Notes: generated by a model not told the origin, from the sequence alone. 64,000 nt of DNA from Alphaproteobacteria bacterium (GCA_965200495.1 CBDAUG010000001.1:1191406-1255405); one strand, 5' to 3'. Numbered from the stretch's first letter, positions 22,234 to 57,524 are shown. Made by a program: numbers and translations.

Positions 22234-22275
22234 TCCTTGTCTTGCGGATGGTCGCCTTGTGGTCCACACTGGCAC

Positions 22276-22368: not shown

Positions 22369-22429
22369 GGAGACGGTCTTTCCCCCACCAGAAAGGCACC
22401 TCCCCGGCACCGGCGCCGAAGGAGGAACC

Positions 22430-29538: not shown

Positions 29539-30024
29539 TCATGCCTGGTACATGTGGTAGCGGCCGTGTGCGATGCCGTCGGGGAGGGCGAGGGGGCGCC
29601 AGGCGGCATGGGCGAGGGGCTGATCGCTGATGATGATGGCATCCTCGGCGAGAAGGGGCGGCAGGGCTTTGGCGAGCCAGGCGGCCAGGGCGAGGCTCGC
29701 CTGGCGGTCGCCCGAGCCGATATCGGCGTGGGCAAGGACGGCGGATGGCCCGAGGCGGTGCGCGGCACGGGGAAGTGTGTCGCGAAGCTCGCCGGAAAAC
29801 ATGTGGTGATCGTCGGGGATACAGTCGGGATGGGCGGCGATCCGACGGTCGAAACAGTAGATGTCGCGCTTGCCGAGGAGACAGCGCAGGTGGTCGTAGG
29901 TGCGGCCGTTGCCAAGCCCGATTTCAAGGATGTGACCGGGCCGCGCGCTGACAAGGCGGGCGGCCTCGTCGAGGCACAGCCGCTGGGCCTGAAGACGGCG
30001 AATGGCGCTGTCGAGCCGGCTCAC
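29539..30024 (-). CDS. Class I SAM-dependent methyltransferase-like protein
   Basis: ORF 29539..30093(-). A GTG start at 30024 avoids overlap with the upstream cNMP gene. The ILEIGLGNGRT glycine-rich SAM-binding motif I is present. Confidence 0.55.
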   Translation of the reverse strand: MSRLDSAIRRLQAQRLCLDEAARLVSARPGHILEIGLGNGRTYDHLRCLLGKRDIYCFDRRIAAHPDCIPDDHHMFSGELRDTLPRAAHRLGPSAVLAHADIGSGDRQASLALAAWLAKALPPLLAEDAIIISDQPLAHAAWRPLALPDGIAHGRYHMYQA

Positions 30025-30028
30025 GCCT

Positions 30029-30478
30029 TCAGGAGCCGGCCATGGCGTCACGCAGGAGGGTGGTCGTTTTCTCCACGCGGCGGGCGAGTTCACGCATGAT
30101 CTCGATCGAGATCGACGGGAACTGGTTGACCAACTGGAAGAAGAGCTCCTTGGAAATCATCAGTGTCTCCACCTTCGTCGAGGCCTTCACCGTTGCCGTG
30201 CGCGGCACGTCGCACAGGATCGCATTCTCTCCGAGGAGATCGTTGGGACCGAGCGTTGCCACCTTCACCGGCCCGGACTCCGATTCGACGAGGACATCGG
30301 CGTCGCCGGCAATGATGATGTAGGCGGCATCGCCCTCGTCACCCTGGCGGCACAGCAGATCACCGGGTGCGAAGGTCAGGCGTTGCGCCGTGAAGGCAAG
30401 GAGCTTCAGCCGGCTCGGCTCGATTTTCGAGAACAGCGGGATGGTGCGCAACAGGTCGACTTCCTCCTGCAGGCTCAT
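30029..30478 (-). CDS. Cyclic-nucleotide-binding (cNMP/CAP effector) domain protein, stand-alone
   Basis: 149 aa. CAP-family cNMP-binding signatures are present (LLRTIPLFSKIEPSRL...FAPGDLLCRQGDEGDAAYIIIAGDADVL...LGPNDLLGENAIL...RTATVKA). No DNA-binding HTH follows. Confidence 0.75.
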   Translation of the reverse strand: MSLQEEVDLLRTIPLFSKIEPSRLKLLAFTAQRLTFAPGDLLCRQGDEGDAAYIIIAGDADVLVESESGPVKVATLGPNDLLGENAILCDVPRTATVKASTKVETLMISKELFFQLVNQFPSISIEIMRELARRVEKTTTLLRDAMAGS

Positions 30479-30497
30479 GGGTTATGTCCTCCTCATG

Positions 30498-33176: not shown

Positions 33177-33325
33177 GGTCCCGGTCCGTCATTCCTTCTC
33201 CCGGCGATACTAGGTTCGCATGGCGCCGGATCAAGACTCTGCGCGTTTGCCGGCATTCATCCGGTGACGACAGGGCGGCGGACATGGCAGGATGCGGACC
33301 GGATCGGGAAACAGACGGGTGCGTC

Positions 33326-34573
33326 ATGAGCAAGGTGCCGGAACGCCCGCGCGTCCTGATCTACAGTCATGACAGTTTCGGACTGGGGCATTTGCGCCGG
33401 TGCCGGGCCATCGCCCATGCCATGGTGGGAGCCGTCGACAACCTCACTGTCCTCATCCTTTCCGGCCTTCCCATCATTGGCAGCTTCGATTTTCGTGCCC
33501 GGGTGGACTTCGTGCGCATTCCGGGTGTCATCAAGTTGCGCAACGGAGAGTACTCGCCGCTCAATCCGATGCTCGGTATCGAGCAGACCATGGCGTTGCG
33601 CTCTTCCATCATGCGGCACACCGCCGACATCTTTGATCCCGATATCTTCCTCGTCGACAAGGAACCCCTCGGACTGCGGGGCGAGGTCCGCGAAACGATC
33701 GACATGCTCAAGGATCGCGGCACCAGGATCATTCTCGGTCTGCGTGACGTCATGGATGACCCTGAGCTCCTGAAGCCGGAGTGGGAGCGCAAGAACGCGG
33801 TCCCGGCCCTGAGCGATCTCTACGACGAAATCTGGATCTATGGCCTGCCCCAGATTCATGATCCGCTTGTCGAGATCGACATGCCGGACTCGGTGCGTCG
33901 CAAGGTGGTCTACACGGGATATCTCAAGCGCACGGTGCCCGTGCTGAGCCCGGAAGCAGCGCTGCCGGACGCCATTGATGAGCCCTTTGTGCTCGTCACC
34001 ACGGGTGGTGGAGGGGATGGCGATTTGCTGGTTGACCGGGCGCTGGCAGCCTACGAAAGCGCCAGGGCGCCTGAACAGCCGGCTCTGGTGGTGTTCGGAC
34101 CATTCATGCAGCCCGAGGTCAAGACTGCGTTCCAGCTCCGTGTCGATCGCCTTGAACAGGTATCGGCCATCACCTTCGAGACGCACCTCGAGTCGCTGAT
34201 GGCGCGGGCCGTGGGTGTGGTGGCCATGGGGGGCTACAACACGTTCTGCGAGATCCTGTCATTCGACAAGCCGGCTCTCATCGTTCCGCGACAGGCGCCG
34301 CGCCGCGAGCAGATGATCCGGGCCAGCCGCGCCTGCGAACTCGGCCTTGTCTCGATGCTGACCGAAGACGCCGCGGCCCGTGACGACGCAATGGCGACGG
34401 CGATTCGCCAACTGCCGCAACAGCGCCGCCCCAGCCAGGTTGTGGTTCCAGGGCTCCTCGACGGCCTCGAGAATGTCAATCGGCTGGTCGGGATGCATCT
34501 CGCCGCAAACCGCGCTGGCCCGCGCCCTGCGCCAGAAGGGTTGACCGTCAGCCGGCGGCACGGCGGTGGATGA
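33326..34573 (+). CDS. Glycosyltransferase, GT-B fold, COG4671 / GT28-MGT-like (UDP-sugar dependent)
   Basis: ORF 33284..34573, start at the ATG at 33326. N-terminal motif YSHDSFGLGHLRRCRAIAHAM and C-terminal GGYNTFCEIL resemble MurG/UDP-glycosyltransferase GT-B enzymes. Paralogous to 39458..40588. Confidence 0.65.
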   Translation: MSKVPERPRVLIYSHDSFGLGHLRRCRAIAHAMVGAVDNLTVLILSGLPIIGSFDFRARVDFVRIPGVIKLRNGEYSPLNPMLGIEQTMALRSSIMRHTADIFDPDIFLVDKEPLGLRGEVRETIDMLKDRGTRIILGLRDVMDDPELLKPEWERKNAVPALSDLYDEIWIYGLPQIHDPLVEIDMPDSVRRKVVYTGYLKRTVPVLSPEAALPDAIDEPFVLVTTGGGGDGDLLVDRALAAYESARAPEQPALVVFGPFMQPEVKTAFQLRVDRLEQVSAITFETHLESLMARAVGVVAMGGYNTFCEILSFDKPALIVPRQAPRREQMIRASRACELGLVSMLTEDAAARDDAMATAIRQLPQQRRPSQVVVPGLLDGLENVNRLVGMHLAANRAGPRPAPEGLTVSRRHGGG

Positions 34574-35741: not shown

Positions 35742-36538
35742 GCGTTCAGCCTCCGGTCCGTTTCACGGGTCATCGCCATGCCTGGAGGCAACGCTTCCTC
35801 TGCGCGCAGACGCGCCAGTTCCTGGCGCCACGCCAAGGATTTGAACACCGCTTGTGCCGTGCCGTACCTTGCGCATGTCGGGTGCGCATGCGTTGCCTTC
35901 TCAGGCTGCTCAATCCGGCGGCGCGTATGAAGCCGTCCTTGCGGCGCACGCTGGCGCCGGGTTTGTCGACGACATCCCGGGTGCCGGGGTCTTTCGCAAT
36001 GACCGCTCCGCTCGCCGGCTTCCGGGAGGCGAGACGCCGCCGGTTGCGCCGCTTCATGGCAATGCTGCACGTCGTCCGGCCATGCCCGCCGCATGAATGA
36101 TCCCGCAGTCACCGGTGGCCCTCTGGCCCGTCTTCATGTCGAGACCTGTCACGCTGCCAGCCTGCAACGGGCGGTTGCCGTTGATTCGCCTCATGACAGC
36201 GCGCAACGGGGTTTGCCGTCACGGCGTCACCGGCCCGGTCTGCGGTACGCTGTCGATGGACAATCTGACGACATTCGGTATCGTCCGCCATGCGCGGTCG
36301 GCTCTCCATTGAGCGTTTGGTGGGGCGGGGTAGGCGGCCCCGGAACCACATGCCTCATCCCGTAACATCGCCATTCAGTCAAGAACTGCTGACGGGCGTA
36401 TCATGGTTCGCTGCACGGAGGATCTACCGGGCGATGAAAGGGAAAGGCTGTTCATGACGGACTCGTCGAGTGTGCGGGACAGATCACATCGCCGGCGCCG
36501 TGCCCGATGCCTCCACTCCGGGCGGATGTTGCTGACTC

Positions 36539-37777
36539 GTGCCCGGTAACGTTGCCTTCGTGGTGAAGGGTTGGCCCCGCCTCTCCGAGACCTTCATCGC
36601 CCAGGAGATCCTGGCCCTGGAGAAGCGCGGACTCGACATCCGGATCGTCTCCCTGCGTCATCCATCGACGCCGGATCGTCATGCGATCCACGATGCCGTG
36701 AGGGCACCGGTCACGTGGCTTCCGGAGTATCTTCACGAGGAACCCGTGCGGACCTGGAAGGCCTGGCAACGTGCCCGGAAACTGCCGGGCTATGCCAGCG
36801 CGAGGCGCTGCTGGTGGTCCGATCTCCGGCGGGACCCGACACGCAACAGGGTGCGGCGCTTCGGTCAGGCCTGTGTTGTTGCCACGGAAATCACCCCTTT
36901 CGTGAACCACCTTCATGCCCATTTTCTCCATACCCCGGCATCCGTGACCCGCTATGCAGCGATGATGACCGGGCTTTCGTGGTCGGCATCGGCCCATGCG
37001 AAGGACATCTACACCACCCCCCGTCGCGATCTCGCGGACAAGATGTCCGACTGCGCCTGGCTGGTGACCTGTACGGCGGCAAACCGTGACTGGCTCGAGT
37101 CGCTGGCTCCGGGGCGACGTGTGTCACTCGCCTATCACGGCATTGATCAGGCGCGATGGCCGTCACCGGTCCGTTCCCCGGCGATACGCGATGGCAGCAA
37201 TGCGGACGATCCCGTGCGCCTTGTCACGGTGGGCCGCGCCGTCGAGAAAAAGGGGTATGGCACGCTCCTTGCCGCACTCGCCCTGCTGCCTGATGATCTC
37301 CACTGGCGCCTTATCCATGCCGGCGACGGACCGCTGCTTTCCTCGCTCGCCGAAACAGCCGCCCGGAAGGGACTCGACAGGAGAATCACCTGGCTGGGCG
37401 CCAGACGCCAGGACGAGATCCTTCAAACTCTTCAGGAGGGAGACCTCTTTGTTCTGGCGCCCCTCATCGCCCGTGACGGGGACCGTGACGGGCTTCCCAA
37501 TGTTCTCATGGAGGCGCAGAGCCAGGCACTCGCGGTGGTCACGACGGATGTCTCGGCAGTCGGCGAACTGGTGATCGACGGTTTCAACGGCTGTCTGGTT
37601 CCCCCAGACGATGCCCCGGCGCTGGCTGCCCGGCTCAGTCATCTTGTCCGCAACCCGCAGTTGCGCGAGCGCATGGGCCGCAACGGTGAGGATCGTGTGA
37701 GAACGGAGTTTTCCATGGAGAGCGGCATCGACAGGCTTGTTGATCTCTTCGCGTCGAGCGGGGTGACATGCGCGTAG
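36539..37777 (+). CDS. Glycosyltransferase family 1 (GT4-type, WcaL/colanic-acid-like)
   Basis: 412 aa. The C-terminal GT1 motif is present (VLAPLIARDGDRDGLPNVLMEAQSQALAVVTTDVSAVGELV). GTG start at 36539 per the ORF track. Confidence 0.8.
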   Translation: MPGNVAFVVKGWPRLSETFIAQEILALEKRGLDIRIVSLRHPSTPDRHAIHDAVRAPVTWLPEYLHEEPVRTWKAWQRARKLPGYASARRCWWSDLRRDPTRNRVRRFGQACVVATEITPFVNHLHAHFLHTPASVTRYAAMMTGLSWSASAHAKDIYTTPRRDLADKMSDCAWLVTCTAANRDWLESLAPGRRVSLAYHGIDQARWPSPVRSPAIRDGSNADDPVRLVTVGRAVEKKGYGTLLAALALLPDDLHWRLIHAGDGPLLSSLAETAARKGLDRRITWLGARRQDEILQTLQEGDLFVLAPLIARDGDRDGLPNVLMEAQSQALAVVTTDVSAVGELVIDGFNGCLVPPDDAPALAARLSHLVRNPQLRERMGRNGEDRVRTEFSMESGIDRLVDLFASSGVTCA

Positions 37778-38871
37778 CCTTCTATGCACCCATGAAGGCG
37801 CCGTACCACGAACGGCCCTCGGGTGATCGAACGATGGCACGACAGTTCCTGCGCCTTCTGGGCGAACTCGGACACAACGTGGACGTCGCCTCGACGCTGC
37901 GCGCATGGGAGCATGGCGACGAGAAACGCCAGGAGGCGATCCTTGAGGCGGCGGTCCGGGAAAGGGAACGTCTCCTCAGCCGCTGGCAGTCCCGGCCGCC
38001 CCACGCGTGGTTCACCTATCATCTCTACCACAAGGCGCCCGATCACCTCGGACCGGCCATCGCCGATGCCCTGGGAATTCCCTATGTCGTCGCCGAGCCG
38101 TCGATATCTCCCGCCCGGGCTCACGGCCGGTGGCGGCGTCCCTGGGCCCATGCACGGGCAGCCCTCGAGCGTGCCGATGTTCTGCTGACCATGACGATGA
38201 AGGACGAACGGGGTCTCCTCGCCGCCGGTTTGCCGTGTCGCAGGATCGTGCGCCTGCCACCCTTCATCGATGCTGCGGATGCACCGGTCGCGAGGATGGA
38301 GGCGCGGCGCACCCTTGTTCGGGACTTCGGTCTTGATGGAGAGCGCATGATTGCCATCACCGTGGCCATGATGCGCGCCGGCGACAAGCTTGAGTCCTAC
38401 CGCGTCCTGGCCCGGGTGCTGGCGGCGCTGGATCGCGACGACTTTCATCTTCTGGTTGTCGGCGACGGTCCGTCGCGCGGCGAGGTTGAACACCTCCTCG
38501 CCGGGCGCGCCGTCTTCACCGGGGTCCGTGACGAGGACTCGATCCGGCAGATCCTGGCCGGGTGCGACGTCTTCATCTGGCCCGCCATCAACGAGGCTTA
38601 TGGCATGGCGATCCTTCTCGCCCAGGCCTGCGGATGCCCGGTGGTCGCCGGTGACGCGCCGGGGGTCGGCGAGATCATCGGTCATGGCGACACCGGTCTT
38701 CTGGCACCGTCAGGCGATGCGGCAGCGCTGGCTCTTGCCGTTTCCCGCCTGCTCGACGATCCGGATCTGCGCCGGTCCATGGGGGATGCCGGACGACGCC
38801 ATGTCCTCGCGAATCATTCGCGCGATACGGCCCGGCGCATTCTCGGCCGGGCGCTGGAGACGCGGCCGTGA
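37768..38871 (+). CDS. Glycosyltransferase family 1 (GT4-type)
   Basis: 367 aa. GT1 C-terminal E-x7-E region (FIWPAINEAYGMAILLAQACGCPVVAGDAPGVGEII). Overlaps the upstream gene by 10 nt. Confidence 0.8.
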   Translation: MRVAFYAPMKAPYHERPSGDRTMARQFLRLLGELGHNVDVASTLRAWEHGDEKRQEAILEAAVRERERLLSRWQSRPPHAWFTYHLYHKAPDHLGPAIADALGIPYVVAEPSISPARAHGRWRRPWAHARAALERADVLLTMTMKDERGLLAAGLPCRRIVRLPPFIDAADAPVARMEARRTLVRDFGLDGERMIAITVAMMRAGDKLESYRVLARVLAALDRDDFHLLVVGDGPSRGEVEHLLAGRAVFTGVRDEDSIRQILAGCDVFIWPAINEAYGMAILLAQACGCPVVAGDAPGVGEIIGHGDTGLLAPSGDAAALALAVSRLLDDPDLRRSMGDAGRRHVLANHSRDTARRILGRALETRP

Positions 38872-39458
38872 AACTCGCGTTGCTGAGACATGCGCAGACA
38901 AAGTGGAACGAGGCAGGCCGGCTCCAGGGTCTGAGCGACATAGGGCTCTCGAGGACAGGCAGGACCGCGGCCAGGGCCTGGCGGTTGCCCGGTCACCTGC
39001 ATGGCTGGCGACGGCTTTCGAGTCCGTTGCTGAGAGCGCTGGAAACGGCTGCGCTCACGGGTTTGGCGGATCCGGAGATTGAACCGCGGCTGCGCGAAAT
39101 GGATTGGGGAGACTGGGAAGGCAAGACGCTCGACAGTCTGCGCCATGCCGATCCATCGGCCATGTCCGCCAACGAGGCAGCGGGTCTCGACTTTCGCCCC
39201 CCTGACGGCGAAAGCCCCCGGGACGTCCGGCGCCGTCTCCTCGATCTTGTCCGGGACCTTGCGGCAGACGGCCGCCACACGGTTGCCGTGACACATCGCG
39301 GTGTGATGCGCGCAGCCCTCTCGGCTGCCACAGGCTGGGATTTCACAGGCGCGCCGCCCATCAGGATGCCGCGATACGGACTGCTGATGCTCACCGTGGA
39401 CGACAACGCGGCAGTCGTTCCCGACGATCCCCCTGTCATTGCGACGGGAGGAGGCTGA
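38868..39458 (+). CDS. Histidine phosphatase family protein (phosphoglycerate-mutase-like)
   Basis: N-terminal LLRHAQTKWN (catalytic RHG-type His) and a later VTHRGVMRA motif (second His). 196 aa. GTG start overlaps the upstream stop (GTGA). Confidence 0.75.
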   Translation: MKLALLRHAQTKWNEAGRLQGLSDIGLSRTGRTAARAWRLPGHLHGWRRLSSPLLRALETAALTGLADPEIEPRLREMDWGDWEGKTLDSLRHADPSAMSANEAAGLDFRPPDGESPRDVRRRLLDLVRDLAADGRHTVAVTHRGVMRAALSAATGWDFTGAPPIRMPRYGLLMLTVDDNAAVVPDDPPVIATGGG

Positions 39459-40588
39459 TGGACGGGCCGGTTCTCTTCTGGGTCCAGCATCTCTTGGGAA
39501 GCGGCCATCTCAAGCGCGTGGCGCGCATTGCGTCGGTGCTGGCCGGGAACGGCACGGCGGCGGTGATCGCGTCGGGAGGCATGCCTGTGGCGACTCTCGA
39601 TACGGGAAAGGCCCGTCTCGTCCAGTTGCCGGCGGTGCGTGCGGGTGATGAGACGTTCTCCAGGCTTGTGGACGCTGCAGGGCGGCCCGTGGACGCGGCC
39701 TTTCTCGATGATCGCCGCCGCCGCCTCGAAGACCTGGTTGGTCAACTCGACGCGCGTCTTGTGGTCACCGAGACCTGGCCGTTTGGCAGGCGCCAGCTCA
39801 CGGCGGAAGTGCTCGCTCTTGTTGCTGCCGCACGCCGTCATCGCTGCAACACGATGGTGGTCAGTTCGGTGCGGGACATTCTTCAGCGCCCGTCAAGGCC
39901 CGAACGCCACGACACCATGCGCGACCTGGCGCTGCAGCACTGCGATCACGTCATGGTACACGGAGTCGAGAGCTTCGTGCCGTTCGGGAAGACCTTTTGC
40001 CATGCTGGGGCCTTGAGCCACCTGCTTCACTACACAGGCTACGTCGCCGACGCGCCGCCGGTCGTCAGCGAATGGGGTCCCGGCCGCGGGGAAATCGTGG
40101 TCTCTGCTGGCGGCGGGGCTGTCGGAGAAGGTCTCCTCAAGGCAGCCATGGCGGCGCCAGCGTACTCGAAGCGCGCCCGCCGGAAACGGTGGCGGCTCCT
40201 GGTCGGTGACAGCGGTCTTGCGCCATGCGAACAACAGGGCATGGTGGCCGAACCCAATCGTTCCGATTTTCCCGAACTTCTTCGCCGTTGCGCCGTTTCG
40301 GTGTCGCAGGGTGGCTACAACACGGTGGCGGAGATCCTTGGCGCCGGCGCCCGGGCCGTCGTCGTGCCATGGTCAGCGGCCGGCGAAACCGAACAGACGG
40401 AGCGCGCACGGCACTTGCAGCAGCGCCGGCTTGCCATCGTTCTCGATGACGCGGCACTGACACCCCGAAGCATGGCAAGGGCTGTCGATGAAGCCTTCGA
40501 CCTCGAACCAGGGAACATGGGGGACATCAGGCTCGATGGTGCCGGCGAGAGCGCCAGGCTTATCGCTGACTGGCTGCGCCATGGCTGA
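39458..40588 (+). CDS. Glycosyltransferase, COG4671 / GT28-MGT-like (paralog of 33326..34573)
   Basis: N-terminal FWVQHLLGSGHLKRVARIASVL parallels YSHDSFGLGHLRRCRAIAHAM of the paralog. C-terminal GGYNTVAEIL. GGAGGAGG RBS. TGATG overlap with the upstream gene. Confidence 0.65.
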   Translation: MDGPVLFWVQHLLGSGHLKRVARIASVLAGNGTAAVIASGGMPVATLDTGKARLVQLPAVRAGDETFSRLVDAAGRPVDAAFLDDRRRRLEDLVGQLDARLVVTETWPFGRRQLTAEVLALVAAARRHRCNTMVVSSVRDILQRPSRPERHDTMRDLALQHCDHVMVHGVESFVPFGKTFCHAGALSHLLHYTGYVADAPPVVSEWGPGRGEIVVSAGGGAVGEGLLKAAMAAPAYSKRARRKRWRLLVGDSGLAPCEQQGMVAEPNRSDFPELLRRCAVSVSQGGYNTVAEILGAGARAVVVPWSAAGETEQTERARHLQQRRLAIVLDDAALTPRSMARAVDEAFDLEPGNMGDIRLDGAGESARLIADWLRHG

Positions 40589-41354
40589 CTGGACGGCGCT
40601 GGTGCGGGAGCTTGGCCTGTGGGCGCAATCAGGACGGACGGCGACGTTCTGGTGGCGGGACGACGATGCCGGCAACGATGTCGCGAAACTCAAGGAGCTC
40701 CTTCATCTGCAACAGAGTCTCGGCGTTCCCCTTGCCATCGCCGTGGTGCCGGGCTGGCTGAGCGATGAGGTCGCAGCGCTCATTGCCGGGACGGGCGATA
40801 TCCATGTATTGCAGCACGGCGTGGCCCATGCCGACCACAGCGCAGGCAGGGGGCGCAGAATGGAGCTCTGTGACAGGGCCCTGTCTTCCGGTCTCCGCCA
40901 AGCCCTGATACGGTCGCGAAACGTGCTTCGCGCATCCTTTCCGTCGACACTGAGGGAGGTCATGGTACCCCCATGGAACAGGATTGATGAGGCGGTGGTT
41001 TCCATCCTTGCCAGGAGCGGATTTGTTGGTCTCTCGACACTCGGTCCACGGCGCGGCGCACGAAGGCACGGTCTTGTTGTCAACAACGTTCATGTCGATA
41101 TCATCGACTGGAAGGCGGGAAGGCGGTTTGCCGGCGACAAAGCCTGCCTGGAAGCATCGCTCAGACACCTCGAAGATCGCCGCCTTGGTGTCGTGGACTC
41201 CGCGGAAGCCACAGGGCTGATGACTCATCACCTCGTTCACGACGCAGCATGTCGCACCTTCATTGACCGATTCGTCCATACCGTTGCGCGGCACCCGGCG
41301 GGCCGCTGGCTCTCCGCCGGCACGGTGTTTGCCGCAGGGGGGGCGGATGCATGA
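40578..41354 (+). CDS. Polysaccharide-deacetylase-like (NodB-fold) protein
   Basis: ORF 40488..41354 trimmed to the ATG at 40578, which overlaps the upstream stop. ATFWWRDDD and a His-rich VLQHGVAHADH motif are present. About 259 aa. Confidence 0.55.
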   Translation, partial: AMADWTALVRELGLWAQSGRTATFWWRDDDAGNDVAKLKELLHLQQSLGVPLAIAVVPGWLSDEVAALIAGTGDIHVLQHGVAHADHSAGRGRRMELCDRALSSGLRQALIRSRNVLRASFPSTLREVMVPPWNRIDEAVVSILARSGFVGLSTLGPRRGARRHGLVVNNVHVDIIDWKAGRRFAGDKACLEASLRHLEDRRLGVVDSAEATGLMTHHLVHDAACRTFIDRFVHTVARHPAGRWLSAGTVFAAGGADA

Positions 41355-41884
41355 AGGCACCCGGGGTTCTTTGCTATGATACCCGGAGCATCGCAGCCGA
41401 CTATGCGCGTGCCGTGTTCGGCGCGGTGGTATGCCTCGCGCCGCCGCTGCTGATGGACGTCGCTGCCGTGCTGGCGTGGATCCTGGTGGCGATGGGTGCG
41501 CTGTTCGTGGCCTTCGGCCTGAGAACCCTGCTGCGCCATCTGACCGTCTATGAACTCACCCCGGAAGGGATGACAGCCAGCGGACCGCTTGGCGCTGCGG
41601 TTTCCTGGGAGGACCTGACGGCCATCAACCTCGCCTATTTTCAGACGCGCCCGCGGCGCAAGATCATCACACAGTCCCCGAGCGGCTGGATGGAGCTCAC
41701 CCTTCGCGAGGGGCGCCAGACCATCAAGGTCGATTCCTCCCTTCAGGGATTCGATGATGTCGTCGGCGAGGCCGCCCGGGTTGCCCGCGAGCGTGGATTG
41801 ACGCTCAATTCGGTGACGCTCGCCAACCTGGCGGCCATGGGGTTCGTCCACGCTTCGCCGGAAAGCGGGGAGGTGTCGTTGTGA
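41351..41884 (+). CDS. Membrane protein with two N-terminal TM helices and a bacterial PH-like (YdbT/bPH) domain
   Basis: 177 aa. Hydrophobic segments AVFGAVVCLAPPLL and VLAWILVAMGALFVAFGL. The C-terminal segment has a bPH-like fold prediction from pattern only. ATGA overlap with the upstream gene. Confidence 0.45.
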   Translation: MKAPGVLCYDTRSIAADYARAVFGAVVCLAPPLLMDVAAVLAWILVAMGALFVAFGLRTLLRHLTVYELTPEGMTASGPLGAAVSWEDLTAINLAYFQTRPRRKIITQSPSGWMELTLREGRQTIKVDSSLQGFDDVVGEAARVARERGLTLNSVTLANLAAMGFVHASPESGEVSL

Positions 41885-43749
41885 CCCCGCTCATCGAGGT
41901 CGACGATCTCCACATCAGCTTCCGGATCGGCGATGGCACCGTCGAAGCTGTCAAGGGGGTGTCGCTCACCATGTTGCCGGCGCGCACCCTTGCACTGGTG
42001 GGTGAATCGGGCTCCGGCAAGACCGTGATCTCCCAGGCCATCATGCGCATTCTGCCGCGCGTTGCCGAGATCACCTCGGGCCGCATCCTGTTTCACGACC
42101 CTCACAACCGTGATGGAGGGCCGGTCGATATCGTTTCCCTCGAGGAGAATGGTCGGGGGATGAGAGCCATCCGTGGCGGGCGCATATCGGTGATCTTCCA
42201 GGAGCCGATGACATCCCTCTCGCCGTTGCATACGGTGGGTGATCAGGTCGGTGAAGCCCTCCATCTCCACCGCCGCTGCTCAAGGGCCGAAGGCCATGAA
42301 CTGACCATCGACATGCTGCGCCTTGCCGGTTTTCCGGATGCGCGCGCCGCCTTCAACAGCTACCCCTTCGAACTGTCCGGTGGTCTGCGTCAACGCGCCA
42401 TGATCGCCATGGCGCTGGTCTGTCGTCCGGCGTTGCTGATCGCCGATGAACCCACCACCGCTCTTGATGTCACCGTCCAGGCACAGATCCTCAAGCTGGT
42501 GAACGACCTCAAGGCCGAGCTTTCCATGGCCGTGTTGATGATCACGCACGATCTCGGTGTTGTCGCCAACGTCGCCGAGGACATTGTGGTGATGTACCAC
42601 GGCAGGATCATGGAACGGGGCTCCCTCGACGACATCTTCCATCGGGCTCGCCATCCCTATCTCAAGGGACTGCTGGCGGCCGTGCCACGCTTTGGTCTTC
42701 GTCCCGGAGAGCGGCTGGTTCCGCTGCGCACGATACCGATGACGAACATTGCTTCCATGAGCCGGACGGGAGTGCGCGGGAACGCCGGCGAAACGCTGCT
42801 TTCGGTGCATGGTCTCGTGAAGACATTCACCACCCGCAAATCCGGATTGCTGGCCCGGGCCCGGACCTCCCATGTTGCGGTCAACGATGTCAGCTTCGAG
42901 GTGCGGCGCGGCGAGTGCCTTGGTCTGGTCGGCGAGTCGGGATGCGGCAAGACCACGACAAGCAAGCTCATACTGAGGGCTCTCGACCCCGATGCGGGAA
43001 CCATCACCTTCCTTGACGACGGGGTGCCGCGGGACGTCTTTGCCCTGAAGGACAAGGACCTCTTCGCCTACCGCAGGAAGGTGCAGTTCATCTTCCAGGA
43101 CCCATTCGGATCGCTCAATCCACGCATGACGGTGTTCGACATCATCGTCGAACCACTGCTGATTCATGGTGTGGGTAACGCCGAAGGGCGCGCCGAAAGG
43201 GTCAAGGATCTCATCAATGTCGTCGGCCTGGATGTCCGCCACCTGCGCCGCTATCCGCACAGTTTTTCCGGAGGGCAGCGTCAGCGGATCGGCATTGCCC
43301 GGGCCCTTGCCCTTGAACCGGAGCTGCTGATCTGCGATGAACCGGTCTCGGCTCTCGACGTGTCGATCCAGGCGCAGGTTCTCAACCTGCTGAAGGACCT
43401 GCAACGGGAGATGGGCCTCACCTACATCTTCATTTCGCACAATCTCGCCGTGGTCGACTACATGGCCGACCGCATTGCCGTGATGTGTGCCGGGCGTCTC
43501 GTCGAGCAGGCGAGTCGCGAGGAACTGTTCAGCAATCCGGTGCATCCCTACACCCGGGCCCTGCTCGCCGCGGTTCCCGAGCCCGACCCCGAACGCCAGC
43601 TTGATCTCTCACTGCTCATGGAAGGCCGCGCCTCCGTTCCGGGCGAGTGGCCCGAGCCCTTCAGGGAGACCGGCTGCCTCGGGATCGTCAGCGTCGGCGC
43701 CGATCACTGGGTGCGGGCCACGGCAGAGCCGGGAGACGTCCGGATATGA
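41881..43749 (+). CDS. Fused double-NBD ABC ATP-binding protein of a peptide/opine importer (YejF/DppDF-like)
   Basis: 622 aa with two complete NBDs (GESGSGKT... [12 protein letters not shown]... [10 protein letters not shown], and GESGCGKTT... [12 protein letters not shown]... [10 protein letters not shown]). GTGA overlap with the upstream gene. Confidence 0.85.
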
Positions 43750-45632
43750 GCGGGCGTGTCGCAGTGGCGCTGCTTGTGGCGTTTCTCGCCATGCCTGTCC
43801 CGGCGTCCGAGGCGCCCTGGTTTGCGGAACAGGTCGCTTCCGGCGATCTGCCGGCCCTTCACGAGCGTCTGCCGGACAACCCGCGCGTTGTCGACGATGG
43901 CCGGGAAACCGGCGACTACGGCGGCGACTGGAACATGCTGATCGCGCGCAGCAAGGACACGCGAATCCTCGCGGTCTTCGGCTACGCCCGGCTGATCGGA
44001 TACGACAAGACCTTCACCCTTCAACCGGATCTCCTCGACTCCTTCACCGTCGAGGACGGGCGCATCTTCACCTTCCGCTTGCGCAGAGGCCACCGATGGT
44101 CGGATGGTCATCCCTTTAGCTCAGAGGATTTTCGCTACTGGTGGGAGGACGTTGCCGGCAACCCTGAACTCTCTCCGTCGGGCCCGCCGACTGCCATGCG
44201 CGCCGGCGGCGTCTTGCCTCTTTTCGAAGTCATCAGCGACGAGGTCGTGCGCTACACCTGGCCCGTTCCCAACCCCGATTTCCTGCCGGCACTGGCCGGT
44301 GCTGCGCCCCTCTTCATCTACCGTCCGGCGCACTACATGAAGCAGTTCCACGTGGATCATGGTGACGCCGAGGCCATCCGGCGTCAGGCCACCGAGGCCG
44401 GCAAGCCTGGCTGGGCATCGCTTCACAACGCCAACGACAACCTCTATCGCTTCGACAACCCCGACCTTCCCACACTGCAGCCATGGTTCATCACCAACGA
44501 GGCGCCGGCCCAGCGGTTCATCGCGGAGCGAAATCCCTTCTTTCACAGGGTGGATGCCCGGGGGCGGCAGCTTCCCTACATTGACCGCGTCGTCATGACC
44601 GTCGTTGACAGCAAGCTCATCCCCCTCAAGACGTGGGCCGGGGAAGCCGATCTGCAGGTACGGGGGCTTGCCTTCAACGACTACACCTTCCTGAAGGAAG
44701 GAGAGGAGCACAACGACTACCAGGTACGGCTGTGGCAGACGGCGAGAGGGAGCCAGCTGGCACTCTATCCCAATCTCAACGTCGCCGATCCGGTGTGGCG
44801 CACGGTGCTGCGGGACCTTCGCTTCAGGCGGGCTCTTTCGCTGGCCATCAACCGCCGGGAGATCAACCAGGTGATCTACTTCGGTCTCGGCATCGAAGGG
44901 CAGAACACGGTTCTTCCCGCATCGCCCCTCCACCGCGCCGAGTTCCGGGATGCCTGGGCCCAGTTCGATCTTGAGGAGGCCAATCGGCTGCTCGACGACA
45001 TGGGACTCATTGTCGATGACGGCATGCGCCTGCTTCCCGATGGCAGACCGCTGGAAATCATCGTCGAGACCGCGGGCGAGAACCCCGAAGAGACCGACAT
45101 ACTCGAACTGATCCACGATTCCTGGGCAGCGGCCGGAATCAAGCTCTATCCCAAACCCCTGCAGCGAGAGGTCCTGCGCAACCGCATCTTTGCCGGGGAG
45201 ACGGTGATGGCCATGTGGTTCGGCAATGAGAACGGCGTACCCGTGGCCGACATGAGTCCCGGTGAGTTCGCTCCGACGACCCAACAGCTGCTGATGTGGC
45301 CGCGGTGGGGCCAGCACCACGAAACCGGCGGTGCCGCCGGGGAGCCGATCGACATGGAAGTGCCGCGCCGCCTTATGGATCTCTATCTCGCTTGGCGCAC
45401 CAGCAGGACCTCCGATGAGCGCCGGGCCATCTGGGACGAGATGCTGGAACTCTACTGCAACGGGGTCTACTCCATCGGCCTGGTTGCCGGCATCCTCCAG
45501 CCCCTTGCCGTCTCGAACCGGATGAGGAACGTGCCGGCGGAAGCCATCTACAACTGGGATCCCGGAGCCCAGCTCGGTGTGTGGCAACCTGACACCTTCT
45601 TCTTCGTCGATGGCGACGACGGTCGGTCATGA
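43746..45632 (+). CDS. ABC transporter substrate-binding protein, family 5 (YejA/oligopeptide-like)
   Basis: ORF 43647..45632, start at the ATG at 43746, overlapping the upstream stop. Signal peptide [23 protein letters not shown]. The roughly 628 aa size fits YejA-type SBPs. Confidence 0.85.
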   Translation: MSGRVAVALLVAFLAMPVPASEAPWFAEQVASGDLPALHERLPDNPRVVDDGRETGDYGGDWNMLIARSKDTRILAVFGYARLIGYDKTFTLQPDLLDSFTVEDGRIFTFRLRRGHRWSDGHPFSSEDFRYWWEDVAGNPELSPSGPPTAMRAGGVLPLFEVISDEVVRYTWPVPNPDFLPALAGAAPLFIYRPAHYMKQFHVDHGDAEAIRRQATEAGKPGWASLHNANDNLYRFDNPDLPTLQPWFITNEAPAQRFIAERNPFFHRVDARGRQLPYIDRVVMTVVDSKLIPLKTWAGEADLQVRGLAFNDYTFLKEGEEHNDYQVRLWQTARGSQLALYPNLNVADPVWRTVLRDLRFRRALSLAINRREINQVIYFGLGIEGQNTVLPASPLHRAEFRDAWAQFDLEEANRLLDDMGLIVDDGMRLLPDGRPLEIIVETAGENPEETDILELIHDSWAAAGIKLYPKPLQREVLRNRIFAGETVMAMWFGNENGVPVADMSPGEFAPTTQQLLMWPRWGQHHETGGAAGEPIDMEVPRRLMDLYLAWRTSRTSDERRAIWDEMLELYCNGVYSIGLVAGILQPLAVSNRMRNVPAEAIYNWDPGAQLGVWQPDTFFFVDGDDGRS

Positions 45633-46627
45633 TCGCCTTCACTGTCCACAGGCTCATCATCATGGTGCCGACGCTGATCGGCATCAGCCTCATCACCTTT
45701 GTCATCATCCAGCTTCCGCCCGGCGATTTCCTGTCGACCATGATTGCCGAATGCGAGGCCCAGGGTGAGTCGGGTTGCATGGAACAGATTGGCATATACC
45801 GCCAGGAGTTCGGTCTCGACCGGCCCATGTCGCATCAGTACGTGATATGGGTTGCTGACCTTGTCCGGGGCGACATGGGAATCAGCTTCGAATACAACCG
45901 GCCGGTGGCCGAGGTCATCGGCGAGAGCCTTTGGCTTACCATCATTGTTTCCGGCGCGACCATCATCTTTACCTGGGTTGTCGCCTTTCCCATCGGGGTC
46001 TACTCGGCGACACATCAGTATTCCTGGGGCGATCACGGGCTCACCTTCCTGGGATTTCTCGGCCTGGCGACGCCCAATTTCCTGCTCGCCCTTGTGCTGC
46101 TGTTCCTCGGGAACGTGTGGTTCGGGACATCGATTGGCGGTCTCATGGATCCCGTCTATATCGATCAGCCCTGGACCTGGGGAAAATTCCTCTCGATCCT
46201 CGAACACCTGTGGATTCCGGTGGTGGTGATCGGCACCTCCGGCACGGCGGGCATGATCCGCCGCCTTCGCGCCAATCTGCTTGACGAACTCCACAGGCAG
46301 TATGTCGTCACGGCGAAGGCCAAGGGCCTGCATCCGGCGCGCGTGCTTGTCCGCTACCCGCTGCGCATGGCCCTCAATCCGTTCATTGCCGATATCGGCA
46401 ATCTTCTTCCCCAGGTCATCTCAGGAGCGGTGATCGTGTCGGTGGTGCTGTCGCTCCCCACCACCGGCCCCATCCTTCTGCGCGCCCTGCAGACCCAGGA
46501 CATGTATCTCGCCGGTTCGTTCCTGATGTGTCTGGCGCTGCTGACCGTTCTCGGGGTGCTGGCCTCCGATCTGCTGCTGGCGCTGCTCGATCCACGCATC
46601 CGTCTGGGGAGCAGCGGGAACAGGTAA
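45629..46627 (+). CDS. ABC transporter permease (YejB/DppB-like)
   Basis: 332 aa, 6 TM. ABC permease EAA-like loop. ATGA overlap upstream. Confidence 0.85.
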   Translation: MIAFTVHRLIIMVPTLIGISLITFVIIQLPPGDFLSTMIAECEAQGESGCMEQIGIYRQEFGLDRPMSHQYVIWVADLVRGDMGISFEYNRPVAEVIGESLWLTIIVSGATIIFTWVVAFPIGVYSATHQYSWGDHGLTFLGFLGLATPNFLLALVLLFLGNVWFGTSIGGLMDPVYIDQPWTWGKFLSILEHLWIPVVVIGTSGTAGMIRRLRANLLDELHRQYVVTAKAKGLHPARVLVRYPLRMALNPFIADIGNLLPQVISGAVIVSVVLSLPTTGPILLRALQTQDMYLAGSFLMCLALLTVLGVLASDLLLALLDPRIRLGSSGNR

Positions 46628-47790
46628 TGAGCGGCGCACCTGGCCAGACCGATCACTGGGCCGACACCCGGCCGTGGGATCCTCATGACGTCGACAAGCT
46701 GACACCGGAGCTGGAGCGCTTCTATCTCGCCAACCAGTGGACGCTGATGTGGTGGAAGTTCCGCCGCCACCGCCTCGCCGTCATTTCCGGCATGATCCTC
46801 CTGGCGACGTTCTTTTCCATCGCCGTTTCAGAGATTCTCGCTCCCTACAATCTCCATACGCGCAACACTGATCACATCTATGCGCCGCCGCAGATGGTGC
46901 GGCTGTTTCACGAAGGCCGGTTCATCGGACCCTTCGTCTACGGCTACGACTATCATCTCGACATGTCCAACCTGCAGCGGGTCTACACCCCGGATCCAAC
47001 CAGGGTCGAACCTCTGCGATTCTTCTGCCTGGGGGATGCGTACACGTTCTGGGGCATGGTCGAGATGCGCTTCCATGTCGTCTGTCCGGCCGAGGGCGGC
47101 ACCCTCTTCCTGCTGGGAACCGACAGGCTGGGGCGCGATCTCCTGTCGAGGATTCTCATGGGTGCGCGCATATCGCTCACCGTGGGCCTCATCGGCATCG
47201 CCATCAGCTTCCTCCTGGGGATCGTCCTGGGTGGCCTTTCGGGCTACTACGGCGGCTGGGTCGACAGCCTTGTTCAGCGCACGATCGAGATCATCCGCAG
47301 TTTCCCGGAGTTACCCTTGTGGATGGCGTTGTCGGCGGCCCTGCCGATCACCTGGAGCCCGGTCCTGGTCTATTTCGGCATCACCATCATCCTCGGCCTC
47401 TTCGACTGGACCGGTCTGGCGCGGGCCGTGCGTTCGAAACTGCTGGCCCTGCGGGAGGAAGACTTTGCCACGGCCGCCGTGCTGATGGGCGCAAAGCCGT
47501 CACGGGTCATCTTTCGTCACCTGCTTCCGGGCTTCACCAGCCACCTCATTGCCTCGGCGACCCTTTCCGTTCCCGGCATGATCCTCGGAGAGACGGCGCT
47601 CTCCTTCCTGGGTCTGGGTCTCAGGCCACCGATCACGAGCTGGGGCGTTCTCCTCAACGAGGCCCAGAACATCAACATCGTGGCGCTCTATCCCTGGCTC
47701 ATGCTGCCCGTCGTTCCCGTCATCATTGTCGTCCTCGCCTTCAACTTCCTCGGCGACGGACTGCGCGACGCCGCCGATCCCTACCGCTAG
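46627..47790 (+). CDS. ABC transporter permease (YejE/DppC-like)
   Basis: ORF 46528..47790, start at the ATG at 46627 (TAATG overlap). A long N-terminal periplasmic extension precedes 6 TM, as in YejE. Confidence 0.85.
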   Translation: MSGAPGQTDHWADTRPWDPHDVDKLTPELERFYLANQWTLMWWKFRRHRLAVISGMILLATFFSIAVSEILAPYNLHTRNTDHIYAPPQMVRLFHEGRFIGPFVYGYDYHLDMSNLQRVYTPDPTRVEPLRFFCLGDAYTFWGMVEMRFHVVCPAEGGTLFLLGTDRLGRDLLSRILMGARISLTVGLIGIAISFLLGIVLGGLSGYYGGWVDSLVQRTIEIIRSFPELPLWMALSAALPITWSPVLVYFGITIILGLFDWTGLARAVRSKLLALREEDFATAAVLMGAKPSRVIFRHLLPGFTSHLIASATLSVPGMILGETALSFLGLGLRPPITSWGVLLNEAQNINIVALYPWLMLPVVPVIIVVLAFNFLGDGLRDAADPYR

Positions 47791-48521
47791 TCCGCATCGC
47801 GGGATCATGATCGGGCCCCGCGCACGCTCCGTCACCGTGTCGCCCTGGCTGGAAGGCGAGGACGTCGGGTGCGTTTTTCCGGCGAGCCTTCTGTGATCGG
47901 TTTTGTCCCCGTGGGCAACGGCAGTCGGGAGCGGGTATTGCACCCTGGCTGTCAGGGACGGGCGCCGACGCGAGAACGGCGCTGACAGGCACGCCACGCA
48001 CTTTCGGTGAACTCCCTGGCGTTCTCCTTGCTTTCGACATCTCAAGGTCCTGATCAACGCGTCGAGCATGTCCTCGACGCGCATGCCGCGCAAAACGGCT
48101 CACAATTCCTTTGCTTCGCCCTCAACGTCGACCGCCGCGCTTGCGCCCGCCTTCCGGCACCAACGTCTCCCGGACCTTGATGGCCGTCGAATCCCGCGAG
48201 ACATGGCCTACAATCTCACAGCCCAGCGCCTCCTCAGACGAGGTCTCCCCGCAAGACGCGACGGGGAGAACTCAAGCCTCGCGTGGACTTCCGGCAAGCG
48301 CGACCAGCCGCGCAGCCGGCACAAGCGTCGCGTCCTCCAGCAGCCTCTTCGATCAGGCGGCACGCGTCCACACACCGCCTTGGCCCTGAAGGCCCGGACC
48401 GTCCCCACGTGCCTGACCGGCAAGGCGCTCCACCTGAACCAGTGACAAGGACGGTCACGAAACGCCGGTTCCGTTCGAGAAAGGGGGCCGGCCTCCTCGG
48501 CCAGATCGCCCTTGCTTGCTT

Positions 48522-48791
48522 CTAGGAGCCGCCCACCAATTGCTGCAAATTGGGCGCAAAAGTGATCAGGGCTGCAATGGCGGCAATCAGGATGGCCGTC
48601 TGCCACCATCTCGCGTTGGCATCCCGCTCTGATCGCGCCGCATCCCGTTCTGATCGTGCCGCATCCCGTTTCGCCATGTCTTCGGCCAGGCGGGCAATGT
48701 CCGTGCGATACTCGGCCTGCATCGTCTTCATGCGTTCCTCCAGGGCGGCAAGTTGCCGTGCCAGTTCGTGGTTGTCCGGTGCTTCACTCAT
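48522..48791 (-). CDS. Small coiled-coil, C-terminally tail-anchored membrane protein (ElaB/DUF883- or XhlA-like) with internal RDAARSE tandem repeat
   Basis: 89 aa. The N-terminus is predicted coiled coil (LARQLAALEERMKTMQAEYRTDIARLAEDM). It has an RDAARSE x2 repeat and a C-terminal TM (WWQTAILIAAIAALITF). A frameshifted paralog lies at 51506-51726 on the other strand. Confidence 0.5.
   Translation of the reverse strand: MSEAPDNHELARQLAALEERMKTMQAEYRTDIARLAEDMAKRDAARSERDAARSERDANARWWQTAILIAAIAALITFAPNLQQLVGGS
48619..48675. repeat. Tandem direct repeat, 21-bp unit x about 2.7 (GCATCCCG[C/T]TCTGATCG[C/T]GCC), inside the small-protein CDS
   Basis: The sequence shows gcatcccgctctgatcgcgcc, then gcatcccgttctgatcgtgcc, then a partial gcatcccgtttcgcc. 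It encodes the RDAARSE peptide repeat on the minus strand. Confidence 0.9.
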
Positions 48792-57431: not shown

Positions 57432-57524
57432 GAATCCTGCTTCCCGTCACCGGACGGCGATTCAACAGCCACCGCGCAAGCGAACCCCGCGGTGGCTGTT
57501 ATGGGCGAGAGGGAACCTTGAGGC

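Follow-up and report, generated by a model that had tools for sequence, protein, structure and literature searches.

The locus described here raises the question of why an ABC importer should be encoded in one operon with glycan-building enzymes, and what it would import. Within the window, a 64,000-nt stretch of DNA from an Alphaproteobacteria bacterium, the region 36539-47790 holds ten ORFs (G1-G10, Table 1), all on the + strand. The initial annotation had described a ten-gene overlapping operon in the order GT4, GT4, histidine phosphatase, COG4671 glycosyltransferase, deacetylase-like protein and bPH membrane protein, followed by the transporter genes. This order and the family assignments stand (Pfam, Sinorhizobium meliloti homologs). 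With starts picked by homolog lengths and alignments, all nine junctions are overlapped by 1-10 nt, so that the largest overlap is 10 nt and not in the range of 10-19 nt given earlier. Across 33000-48600, neither terminator-like sites (4 versus 8.6 expected) nor promoter-like sites (2 versus 2.4 expected) are in excess. Because tight junctions are frequent within operons of this genome, the run of nine is read as one operon and as nothing beyond chance. At the G6/G7 boundary the gap has a median of -4 nt across 42 collinear relatives, and the view that glycan and importer genes form one translationally coupled unit is supported. A promoter-like match at 41077-41104 falls within G5.

Table 1. 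Genes of the module and junctions of the ten-gene operon (positions counted from the first nucleotide of the window)
Feature	Position	Strand	Observation
SAM-dependent methyltransferase, Methyltransf_17	29539..30093	-	Pfam PF12692 E 5e-49
Stand-alone cyclic-nucleotide-binding (cNMP-binding) protein, 149 aa	30029..30478	-	Pfam cNMP_binding E 9e-20
MsbA-like ABC exporter-type protein, 892 aa	30498..33176	-	Pfam ABC_membrane and weak ABC_tran; SMb21269 homolog, 37% identity
COG4671/GT28-C-like glycosyltransferase (GT28a)	33284..34573	+	Pfam Glyco_tran_28_C E 2.5e-6; redA (SMb21264) homolog, 50% identity
G1, GT4 glycosyltransferase	36539..37777	+	Pfam Glycos_transf_1 E 8e-27; redB (SMb21265) homolog, 50% identity
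G2, GT4 glycosyltransferase	37768..38871	+	Pfam Glycos_transf_1 E 2.6e-26; SMb21252 homolog, 43% identity
G3, histidine phosphatase (branch 1)	38868..39458	+	Pfam His_Phos_1 E 4e-41
G4, second COG4671/GT28-C-like glycosyltransferase (GT28b)	39458..40588	+	Pfam Glyco_tran_28_C E 2.6e-10; SMb21266 homolog, 39% identity
G5, cytoplasmic CE4/NodB-fold deacetylase	40581..41354	+	SMb21253 homolog
G6, small membrane protein, accessory	41351..41884	+	Two TM helices and cytoplasmic PH-like domain
G7, fused double-NBD ATPase, PepT-family importer	41881..43749	+	Two ABC_tran domains and oligo_HPY
G8, periplasmic family-5 (cluster C) substrate-binding protein, signal peptide	43746..45632	+	SBP_bac_5 E 9.5e-50
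G9, OppB/DppB-type permease	45629..46627	+	BPD_transp_1 and BPD_transp_1_N
G10, OppC/DppC-type permease	46627..47790	+	OppC_N and BPD_transp_1
G1/G2 junction	37768 vs 37777		10 nt overlap
G2/G3 junction			4 nt overlap, GTGA
G3/G4 junction			1 nt overlap, TGATG
G4/G5 junction	40581 vs 40588		8 nt overlap; homologs of G5 begin MADW
G5/G6 junction			4 nt overlap, ATGA
G6/G7 junction (glycan block/transporter)	41881-41884		4 nt overlap, GTGA
G7/G8 junction	43746		4 nt overlap, ATGA
G8/G9 junction			4 nt overlap, ATGA
G9/G10 junction	46627		1 nt overlap, TAATG

G1 and G2 both carry the GT-B C-terminal Glycos_transf_1 domain of the GT4 family, and neither reaches the cut-off of an NCBIfam equivalog. 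The best solved relatives of G2 are BshA, PimB', sucrose-phosphate synthase and MshA; those of G3 are PhoE, alpha-ribazole phosphatase and glucosyl-3-phosphoglycerate phosphatase. The COG4671 label is listed for the S. meliloti homologs of both GT28-C-like enzymes, SMb21266 and redA (PMC10128002, Data Set S1). G5, which does not match the Pfam Polysacc_deac_1 model, has the deformed (beta/alpha) barrel of the CE4 fold, and a positional comparison with the CE4 motif pattern gives invariant WWRDDD (D27-29), QHGxxH (H79, H83), PPWNR and THH (H216, H217). G6 has the bPH architecture, a helix-capped PH-like beta-sandwich behind a pair of TM helices at the N-terminus; even with E values up to 1 it matches nothing in Pfam, and so no bPH sequence model, and in NCBIfam it hits STM3941 alone, weakly and below threshold.

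By its domains, the transporter encoded by G7-G10 is a generic PepT-family (Opp/Dpp/Nik-type) ABC importer with a fused ATPase, combining a family-5 binding protein, OppB/OppC-type permeases and an ATPase with an oligo_HPY C-terminal region. It had been annotated initially as YejABEF-type, an identity that we rejected on all of its components and on their order. First, the BLASTP alignment of G8 with Escherichia coli YejA, 333 aa long, scores 24 bits at 19% identity, and the YejA model is missing from the NCBIfam matches of G8. Second, the permeases, 27% and 32% identical to those of E. coli Yej, stay far short of the NCBIfam cut-offs of YejB (113 against 445 bits) and YejE (113 against 439 bits) and score higher with Opp4B (G9, 230 bits) and Opp4C (G10, 258 bits). 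Third, G7 scores 622 bits with GsiA and 578 bits with YejF (cut-off 834), both below cut-off. Lastly, the genes run ATPase, binding protein, permease, permease (F-A-B-E) versus A-B-E-F in E. coli. What the importer does share with the YejABEF of E. coli (b2177-b2180) and with rhizobial YejABEF/YejBEF-YepA is the PepT family, dependence on a binding protein and two ATPase domains in one polypeptide, G7 being 43% identical to E. coli YejF. The true YejABEF of S. meliloti is encoded by separate genes, which were examined alongside the cluster discussed below (PMC10128002). The habit of annotating a fused-ATPase Opp-like system automatically as 'Yej/peptide' is hereby corrected. At a distance of 6 kb there is another PepT system with a fused ATPase.

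The operon is part of a 14-gene module, with four further genes upstream (Table 1). The methyltransferase gene is the final gene of a divergent exporter unit, its true start probably lying downstream of the longest-ORF start, and 33 related loci have a homolog placed likewise. The cNMP-binding protein, in which no DNA-binding domain was detected, occurs in 55 related loci with all gene orders, S. meliloti included (51% identity). In the exporter-type protein, an insertion of ~300 aa in the nucleotide-binding domain splits the MsbA model into residues 84-477 and 779-889, and the ATPase motifs (Walker A, Walker B, signature) are non-canonical, being degenerate family-wide. The module contains no gene for a priming phosphoglycosyltransferase, a polymerase or outer-membrane export.

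By protein homology, the module is the counterpart of S. meliloti smb21252-smb21271 (redA/redB) on pSymB, the 'phazolicin-protecting polysaccharide' (PPP) cluster. The envelope glycan that depends on this cluster, chemically uncharacterised, makes cells less sensitive to phazolicin, a peptide antibiotic (Travin et al. 2023, PMC10128002), and papers cited there also tie the cluster to Agrobacterium pyocyanin tolerance and legume-host fitness. Eleven window proteins have homologs in the S. meliloti cluster at 33-65% identity; in tblastn, the matches to redA, redB, SMb21266, SMb21252, SMb21253 and SMb21269 (50, 50, 39, 43, 33 and 37% identity, respectively) each cover at least 94% of the query, gene identities being assigned by coordinate match to Data Set S1 (PMC10128002). 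Common to both are two GT4 enzymes (SMb21252, redB/SMb21265), two COG4671 glycosyltransferases (redA/SMb21264, SMb21266), the CE4 deacetylase SMb21253, the atypical ABC exporter SMb21269, the cNMP-binding protein and four importer subunits (SMb21260-63). In contrast to the module, the S. meliloti cluster is split into blocks, lacks the PH-like membrane protein, the Methyltransf_17 gene and the histidine phosphatase, an accessory part that is missing from some other module versions as well, and has in addition a PF14099 polysaccharide lyase, a nucleotide-sugar oxidase, a cyclase and an FkbM methyltransferase. The product of the module may be a polysaccharide, an oligosaccharide or a glycoside. 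Nine genes are counted in the PPP cluster in the published account, which does not discuss the importer, and nine (biosynthesis, export, other) were transposon-screen hits with log2FC of -3.5 to -5.4 (PMC10128002). The importer genes smb21260-63 are missing from the complete Affected_genes sheet of this one Tn-seq screen in one medium (PMC10128002), an absence that does not prove them irrelevant to the glycan.

The pairing of glycan and importer genes had been called unusual, and its absence elsewhere had been named as grounds for discarding it; we find instead that it recurs in dozens of species and matches a named S. meliloti cluster (PMC10128002). The deacetylase family occurs in at least 596 species. 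Among 52 species loci anchored on the deacetylase gene and having full flanks, 48 contain the glycosyltransferase block, 41 the block with at least three of the four importer genes, in many gene orders, 41 the exporter and 40 the cNMP-binding protein, and glycan genes were present in 7/7 importer-anchored loci. The gene orders at the deacetylase-anchored loci span Alpha-, Beta- and Gammaproteobacteria. In two importer-anchored loci (L093, L094) the binding-protein gene is separated from the permease genes by a COG4671-like gene and a methyltransferase gene, and Azospirillum lipoferum p4 has an importer-first arrangement. At six loci (L016, L025, L026, L030, L069, L080) no importer lies within 10 kb. 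The PPP-type module, known in S. meliloti, is thereby seen to be widespread, the full module being present in most examined loci, from marine and sponge-type Alphaproteobacteria to Azospirillum and Marinobacterium, with the importer, the cNMP-binding protein and the atypical exporter as conserved parts.

The top solved relatives of the binding protein G8 are 5ipw (no ligand), SPH1118 and MelB. The closest overall, 5ipw from T. maritima, is annotated as an oligopeptide binder (OppA), and the best ligand-verified relatives, SPH1118 (211 bits) and MelB (86 bits), take pectin oligosaccharides and alpha-galactosides, respectively (PMC9314435); DppA, OppA and NikA score at most 42 bits. G8 has the large ~630-aa architecture of Sphingomonas SPH1118 (7VER) and Agrobacterium MelB (6EPY), and its pocket-equivalent residues R306, R474, W491 and W604 are conserved. 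It retains equivalents of the SPH1118 stacking Trp594 and of Arg294/Arg466, this Trp and the two pocket Arg being kept in at least 116/119 G8 orthologs. The SPH1118 arginines that hold the galacturonate carboxylate (R57, R438, R496), however, are A, N and G in G8, and the ligand would therefore not be a pectin oligosaccharide. Furthermore, the SPH1118 and MelB systems are catabolic and lie outside biosynthetic operons, whereas G8 is encoded within one. Its ligand is most likely a carbohydrate, be it the product of the module, a fragment or a turnover product of it.

We postulate that the module makes a PPP-type envelope glycan and that its importer retrieves, recycles or senses a carbohydrate related to the module's own product, a reading that we hold to be somewhat probable. 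In the presumed order of events, the two GT4 and two COG4671 glycosyltransferases, all of them soluble, cytoplasmic and of GT-B type, would assemble the glycan, which the cytoplasmic CE4 enzyme would de-N-acetylate (or de-O-acetylate) and the methyltransferase methylate, with the histidine phosphatase stripping phosphate from an intermediate in most lineages. The MsbA-like protein would carry the product over the inner membrane, probably under the control of its cyclic-nucleotide-binding partner. The importer, as a distinct module-dedicated PepT lineage, would handle carbohydrate and not peptide. More tentatively, these steps could close into a loop through which a small glycan, methylated and partly de-N-acetylated, is made, exported and retrieved; an exporter-fold ABC protein gated by its cNMP partner would work without canonical ATPase chemistry, and the PepT-type importer would take the product or a processed form back up. 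We would give this more specific version only a modest chance. If true, the molecule would not form a passive surface barrier but would be recycled as a carrier, shared as a common good or read as a signal. Handles on the identity and handling of the glycan are provided by G8, usable as a ligand trap, by mutants of the importer and by the exporter together with its cNMP-binding partner.

Retrieval of product need not be the reason for the association, as the importer could instead bring in an exogenous or periplasmic sugar as primer or acceptor for the four glycosyltransferases, import then being the first and a required step. The lack of a priming transferase, the carbohydrate-leaning type of G8 and the position of the importer genes, downstream of or interleaved with the glycosyltransferase genes and translationally coupled to them, would all agree with this. 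However, the S. meliloti importer genes are off the affected-gene list while every other core gene scores, which obligatory import would not predict unless the primer were also made internally, and we consider such a supply role unlikely.

The initial annotation had proposed that a peptide or glycopeptide (e.g. a muropeptide) is imported and then glycosylated, dephosphorylated or deacetylated by the cytoplasmic enzymes. Peptide importers do dominate the PepT family; 5ipw, the closest solved relative, is annotated OppA (PMC9314435); in Agrobacterium, muropeptides are taken up by Yej permeases that work with an alternative binding protein, according to PMC9790009; and MurG belongs to GT28 and peptidoglycan deacetylases to CE4. 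Against this, the ligand-verified relatives of G8 bind sugars, G8 is related to YejA no closer than at family level, the module encodes no peptidase, ligase or amidase, and the S. meliloti PPP hits include the enzymes and not the importer genes, so that import of a peptide precursor appears quite improbable. We likewise see little chance that G8 and the importer serve chiefly to report periplasmic product or a host or environmental glycan, tuning synthesis together with the cyclic-nucleotide branch and with uptake incidental. Such a role would fit the cNMP-binding proteins at the core of the module, the cyclases and MBL-fold genes found repeatedly beside it, the presence of cyaA and a cyclic-nucleotide phosphodiesterase among the S. 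meliloti screen hits (PMC10128002), and the part that SPH1118 plays in chemotaxis as well as uptake (PMC9314435). Yet the importer is conserved with all four of its components, the fused ATPase included, which speaks for real transport, and a signalling partner for G8 is not evident. That the importer is functionally unrelated and merely lies beside the glycan genes through one ancestral arrangement is very improbable: importer and glycan protein identities co-vary over loci (rho 0.5-0.8), as co-inheritance would also give, yet the association persists through many rearrangements in three proteobacterial classes, glycan genes sit inside the importer operon in some genomes and the boundary junction remains overlapped.

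The combination of a GT4 enzyme, a phosphatase and a deacetylase is also the logic of the mycothiol/bacillithiol and sugar-phosphate compatible-solute pathways, which are related to the module by analogy only. BshA, MshA and sucrose-phosphate synthase are among the relatives of G2 and glucosyl-3-phosphoglycerate phosphatase among those of G3, with a deacetylase next. All of these similarities lie far under family cut-offs, however, and several lineages do without the phosphatase; the four glycosyltransferases, the methyltransferase and the exporter point to a larger exported glycan. Among glycan exporters, the NdvA/ChvA cyclic-glucan exporter and S. meliloti MsbA2 are likewise MsbA-fold half-transporters encoded beside glycosyltransferases. 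MsbA2 is described as exporting an unknown polysaccharide, its loss being harmful only with intact upstream glycosyltransferases (PMC12239276); msbA2 lies in a different pSymB region from the PPP cluster, and its likeness to the module exporter may be one of analogy only. Unlike NdvA/ChvA and MsbA2, the module exporter combines the ~300-aa insertion and degenerate ATPase motifs with a cNMP-binding protein partner.

The ten plus-strand ORFs at 36539-47790, in a window with a G+C content of ~64%, form one operon (G1-G10: two GT4 transferases, a histidine phosphatase, a COG4671 transferase, a deacetylase, a PH-like membrane protein and four importer genes). With start codons picked by agreement with the lengths and N-termini of homologs, adjacent genes overlap at all nine junctions, by 10, 4, 1, 8, 4, 4, 4, 4 and 1 nt from G1 to G10. 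The run of overlapping genes described in the initial annotation is therefore borne out, although its range of junction sizes was too wide, the largest overlap being 10 nt. The boundary it had singled out as a possible break, 41881-41884, is a GTGA overlap that leaves no space for a terminator. Consensus scanning of 33000-48600 returned four terminator-like sites against 8.6 expected and two promoter-like sites against 2.4 expected; between 47791 and the end of the scan at 48600, no terminator-like site was found. An Rfam scan of 30000-49000 gave no credible match, and thus no riboswitch or leader, and a small ORF at 36454-36549 was dropped as a leader peptide candidate because its protein is not conserved in relatives. 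The ~1.6 kb 3' of the operon (47791-49420) contains no convincing ORF, and no blastn or tblastx similarity was found between it and the related loci fetched.

The four distal genes encode a fused double ATPase (G7), a family-5 binding protein that carries a signal peptide (G8) and two permeases (G9 and G10), and constitute a dedicated PepT-family importer that is not a Yej system, contrary to the earlier label of 'YejABEF-type'. First, the permeases score 113 bits on the NCBIfam YejB/YejE models (cut-offs ~440) but higher, at 230 and 258 bits, with Opp4B/C; the ATPase reaches neither of its cut-offs and is nearer to GsiA (622 bits) than to YejF (578 bits); and no match of the binding protein to the YejA model was found. 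Second, BLASTP identity to the E. coli K-12 proteins is 19% for YejA (24 bits), 27% for YejB, 32% for YejE and 43% for YejF. Lastly, the gene order of yejABEF differs from that of the window importer. The fused ATPase is not diagnostic, because a second PepT-family importer in the window (53968-59498, minus strand; binding protein, permease, permease, fused ATPase) has one too; this second system is Nik/Opp-like and falls under every Yej cut-off.

The unit extends beyond the operon to four more genes upstream, encoding a further COG4671-type transferase (GT28a), an MsbA-like exporter, a cNMP-binding protein and a methyltransferase. In most species a GT28a-type transferase lies directly 5' of G1, and the intervening MFS gene is seen only in the window and its closest relatives (L001 and L007, the latter OZ219747.1). 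The cNMP-binding and methyltransferase genes come after the exporter; the cNMP-binding protein was found in 55 related loci, and cyclases and MBL-fold genes (possible phosphodiesterases) recur near its gene in other genomes. An IS66-family transposase fragment (28663-29367, plus strand; Pfam DDE_Tnp_IS66, E 5e-9) adjoins the methyltransferase end. The module contains neither a priming transferase nor an outer-membrane component.

Features of the module and its relatives, with S. meliloti counterparts
Feature	Position	Strand	Remark	S. meliloti counterpart
Methyltransf_17 methyltransferase	29539-30093	-		
Stand-alone cNMP-binding protein	30029-30478	-	149 aa	
MsbA-like exporter	30498-33176	-	892 aa; divergent	SMb21269, ABC exporter
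GT28a, COG4671-type transferase	33284-34573	+		SMb21264 (redA), COG4671 transferase
MFS gene	34548-35741	-	between GT28a and G1	
Promoter-like site	36257-36284		5' of G1; consensus scan	
G1			GT4	SMb21265 (redB), GT4
G2			GT4	SMb21252, GT4
G4			COG4671 transferase	SMb21266, COG4671 transferase
G5	start 40581	+	N-terminus MADW	SMb21253, deacetylase
Promoter-like site	41077-41104		within G5; consensus scan	
G7-G10			importer	SMb21260-63, four importer genes
G8	start 43746	+		
G10	start 46627	+		
None				SMb21259, PF14099 polysaccharide lyase
None				SMb21271, methyltransferase-like
Importer region, L093	10001-16349		interleaved	
Importer region, L094	10001-16182		interleaved	
PF14099 lyase gene, L091 (S. 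meliloti pSymB)	21817-22797		directly 5' of importer genes; Sinorhizobium only	SMb21259

Non-canonical ATPase motifs occur throughout the exporter family: R, G, I or M often takes the place of the Walker A Lys, with D or E as the next residue, N or S stands in for the Walker B Asp, and the LSGGQ signature reads RLSxAQRQK. The window member carries the Q-loop-like motif YNxNA[ST]xxENLLFG three times (residues 437-456, 576-591 and 734-748), which amounts to an insertion of ~300 aa. The S. meliloti homolog has neither the Walker A Lys nor the Walker B acidic pair and is nonetheless required in Tn-seq. The operon enzymes, for their part, are soluble and cytoplasmic. The GT4 Glycos_transf_1 domain is present in both G1 and G2, neither of which reaches an NCBIfam equivalog cut-off; the solved relatives of G2 (BshA, PimB', sucrose-phosphate synthase and MshA) resemble it only in the donor-binding half. 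G3 belongs to branch 1 of the histidine phosphatases, with PhoE, alpha-ribazole phosphatase and glucosyl-3-phosphoglycerate phosphatase as solved relatives. The GT28 C-terminal domain of G4 is a weak one, and its matches among solved structures stay at chance level, so we draw no conclusion on its donor or acceptor. Literature searches on COG4671 and on redA/redB by name found nothing relevant.

Loci were anchored on either the importer or the deacetylase. Looked up through binding-protein homologs (80, 67, 60, 60, 60 and 59% identity), the full block is present in five contexts (L001, L002/L003, L004, L093 and L095). In L094 the order is binding-protein gene, COG4671-like gene, TylF-type methyltransferase gene and then permease genes; L093 shows the same interleaving plus the remainder of the block, and has an AMP-binding (adenylating) enzyme gene between its deacetylase and PH-like genes. 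Relatives of G5 occur in at least 596 species (one genome scanned per species), and the best 80 of these yielded 52 loci with at least 9 kb on each side. At least three of the four transferases are found in 48 of the 52, and 41 have in addition at least three of the four importer genes; the exporter is present in 41 and the cNMP-binding protein in 40. In a few loci (L016, L025, L026, L030, L069 and L080) no importer was found within 10 kb. Gene orders range widely. Besides collinear loci there are an Azospirillum type whose GT4 block is inverted, a Marinobacterium type in which the importer lies past the exporter on the opposite strand, and a gammaproteobacterial type; the importer comes first on A. 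lipoferum plasmid p4, and on S. meliloti pSymB the module is broken into blocks. Across 42 collinear relatives the median gap at the G6/G7 junction is -4 nt, and a single gap is wider than 50 nt. Because synteny recurs and this junction stays tight, the concern raised initially, that the transferase block and importer might never be syntenic elsewhere, falls away. The coupling is under selection and not an accident of the window genome. Identity correlations between importer and glycan proteins were given little weight, as they fit coupling but plain co-descent as well. Megablast of the region against plasmids recovered no complete cluster, the matches being confined to transporter fragments at 70-83% identity.

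The conserved module is homologous to the S. meliloti red/PPP cluster (smb21252-smb21271; Travin et al. 2023, PMC10128002), which is needed for the so-called phazolicin-protecting polysaccharide (PPP). Gene identities rest on tblastn positions on pSymB that match the coordinates of Data Set S1 (PMC10128002), and UniProt names the GT28a homolog RedA. Under phazolicin, transposon insertions in the PPP cluster show log2FC of -3.5 to -5.4, and the MIC is 8-fold lower in smb21252 and smb21265 mutants (PMC10128002). The importer genes smb21260-63, as well as smb21270, are absent from the complete Affected_genes sheet of Data Set S1 (PMC10128002). Hits in the same screen include cyaA and a cyclic-nucleotide phosphodiesterase (PMC10128002), which fits a core role in the module for the cNMP-binding protein. 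Next to the PPP cluster lies the Clr/cAMP-activated nodP2-smb21248 cluster, which was rejected as the counterpart for that reason, and msbA2, in another pSymB region, was set aside as a parallel case.

G8 (43746-45632), whose S. meliloti equivalent is SMb21261, is a periplasmic binding protein, closest among solved structures to T. maritima 5ipw (289 bits), which is annotated as OppA and has no ligand complex. It scores 211 bits against Sphingomonas SPH1118, whose ligands are pectin oligosaccharides (PMC9314435), 86 bits against Agrobacterium MelB, which binds alpha-galactosides, and at most 42 bits against DppA, OppA, MppA and NikA. When the SPH1118 ligand contacts were transferred onto G8 and conservation was counted over 119 orthologs, the stacking Trp594 (W604 in G8) and Arg294/Arg466 (R306/R474) were kept in at least 116. 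The three carboxylate-binding arginines of SPH1118 are lost in G8, and a pectin-oligosaccharide ligand was rejected on this ground. We infer a pocket of carbohydrate type with a specificity unlike that of SPH1118.

As predicted from sequence, four GT-B transferases would assemble a glycan that would be deacetylated and methylated in the cytoplasm, and in most lineages also dephosphorylated, and that would then be moved out via the MsbA-like protein. The importer would probably take up a product-related carbohydrate, for recycling, salvage or sensing. Pure sensing was weighed as an alternative alongside three others. Import of a peptide or glycopeptide has to be set against the sugar ligands of the ligand-verified relatives of G8, and obligatory import of a primer against an importer that does not appear to be needed for making the protective product in S. 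meliloti. Hitch-hiking of the importer is at odds with a coupling maintained across so many gene orders.

The initial finding is real, and is better seen as one case of the red/PPP-type envelope-glycan module, whose PepT importer is dedicated to it and not of Yej type. The module cannot count as categorically new, since a cluster with a name and phenotypes was already described in S. meliloti; its breadth of conservation, its integral importer and its pairing of a cNMP-binding protein with an atypical exporter do not appear in the literature we found. The polysaccharide lyase SMb21259, among the nine PPP hits (PMC10128002), and a nucleotide-sugar dehydrogenase are additions specific to Sinorhizobium, found in neither the window nor the other loci; the lyase and a nucleotide-sugar oxidase hint at a uronic acid in the Sinorhizobium product.
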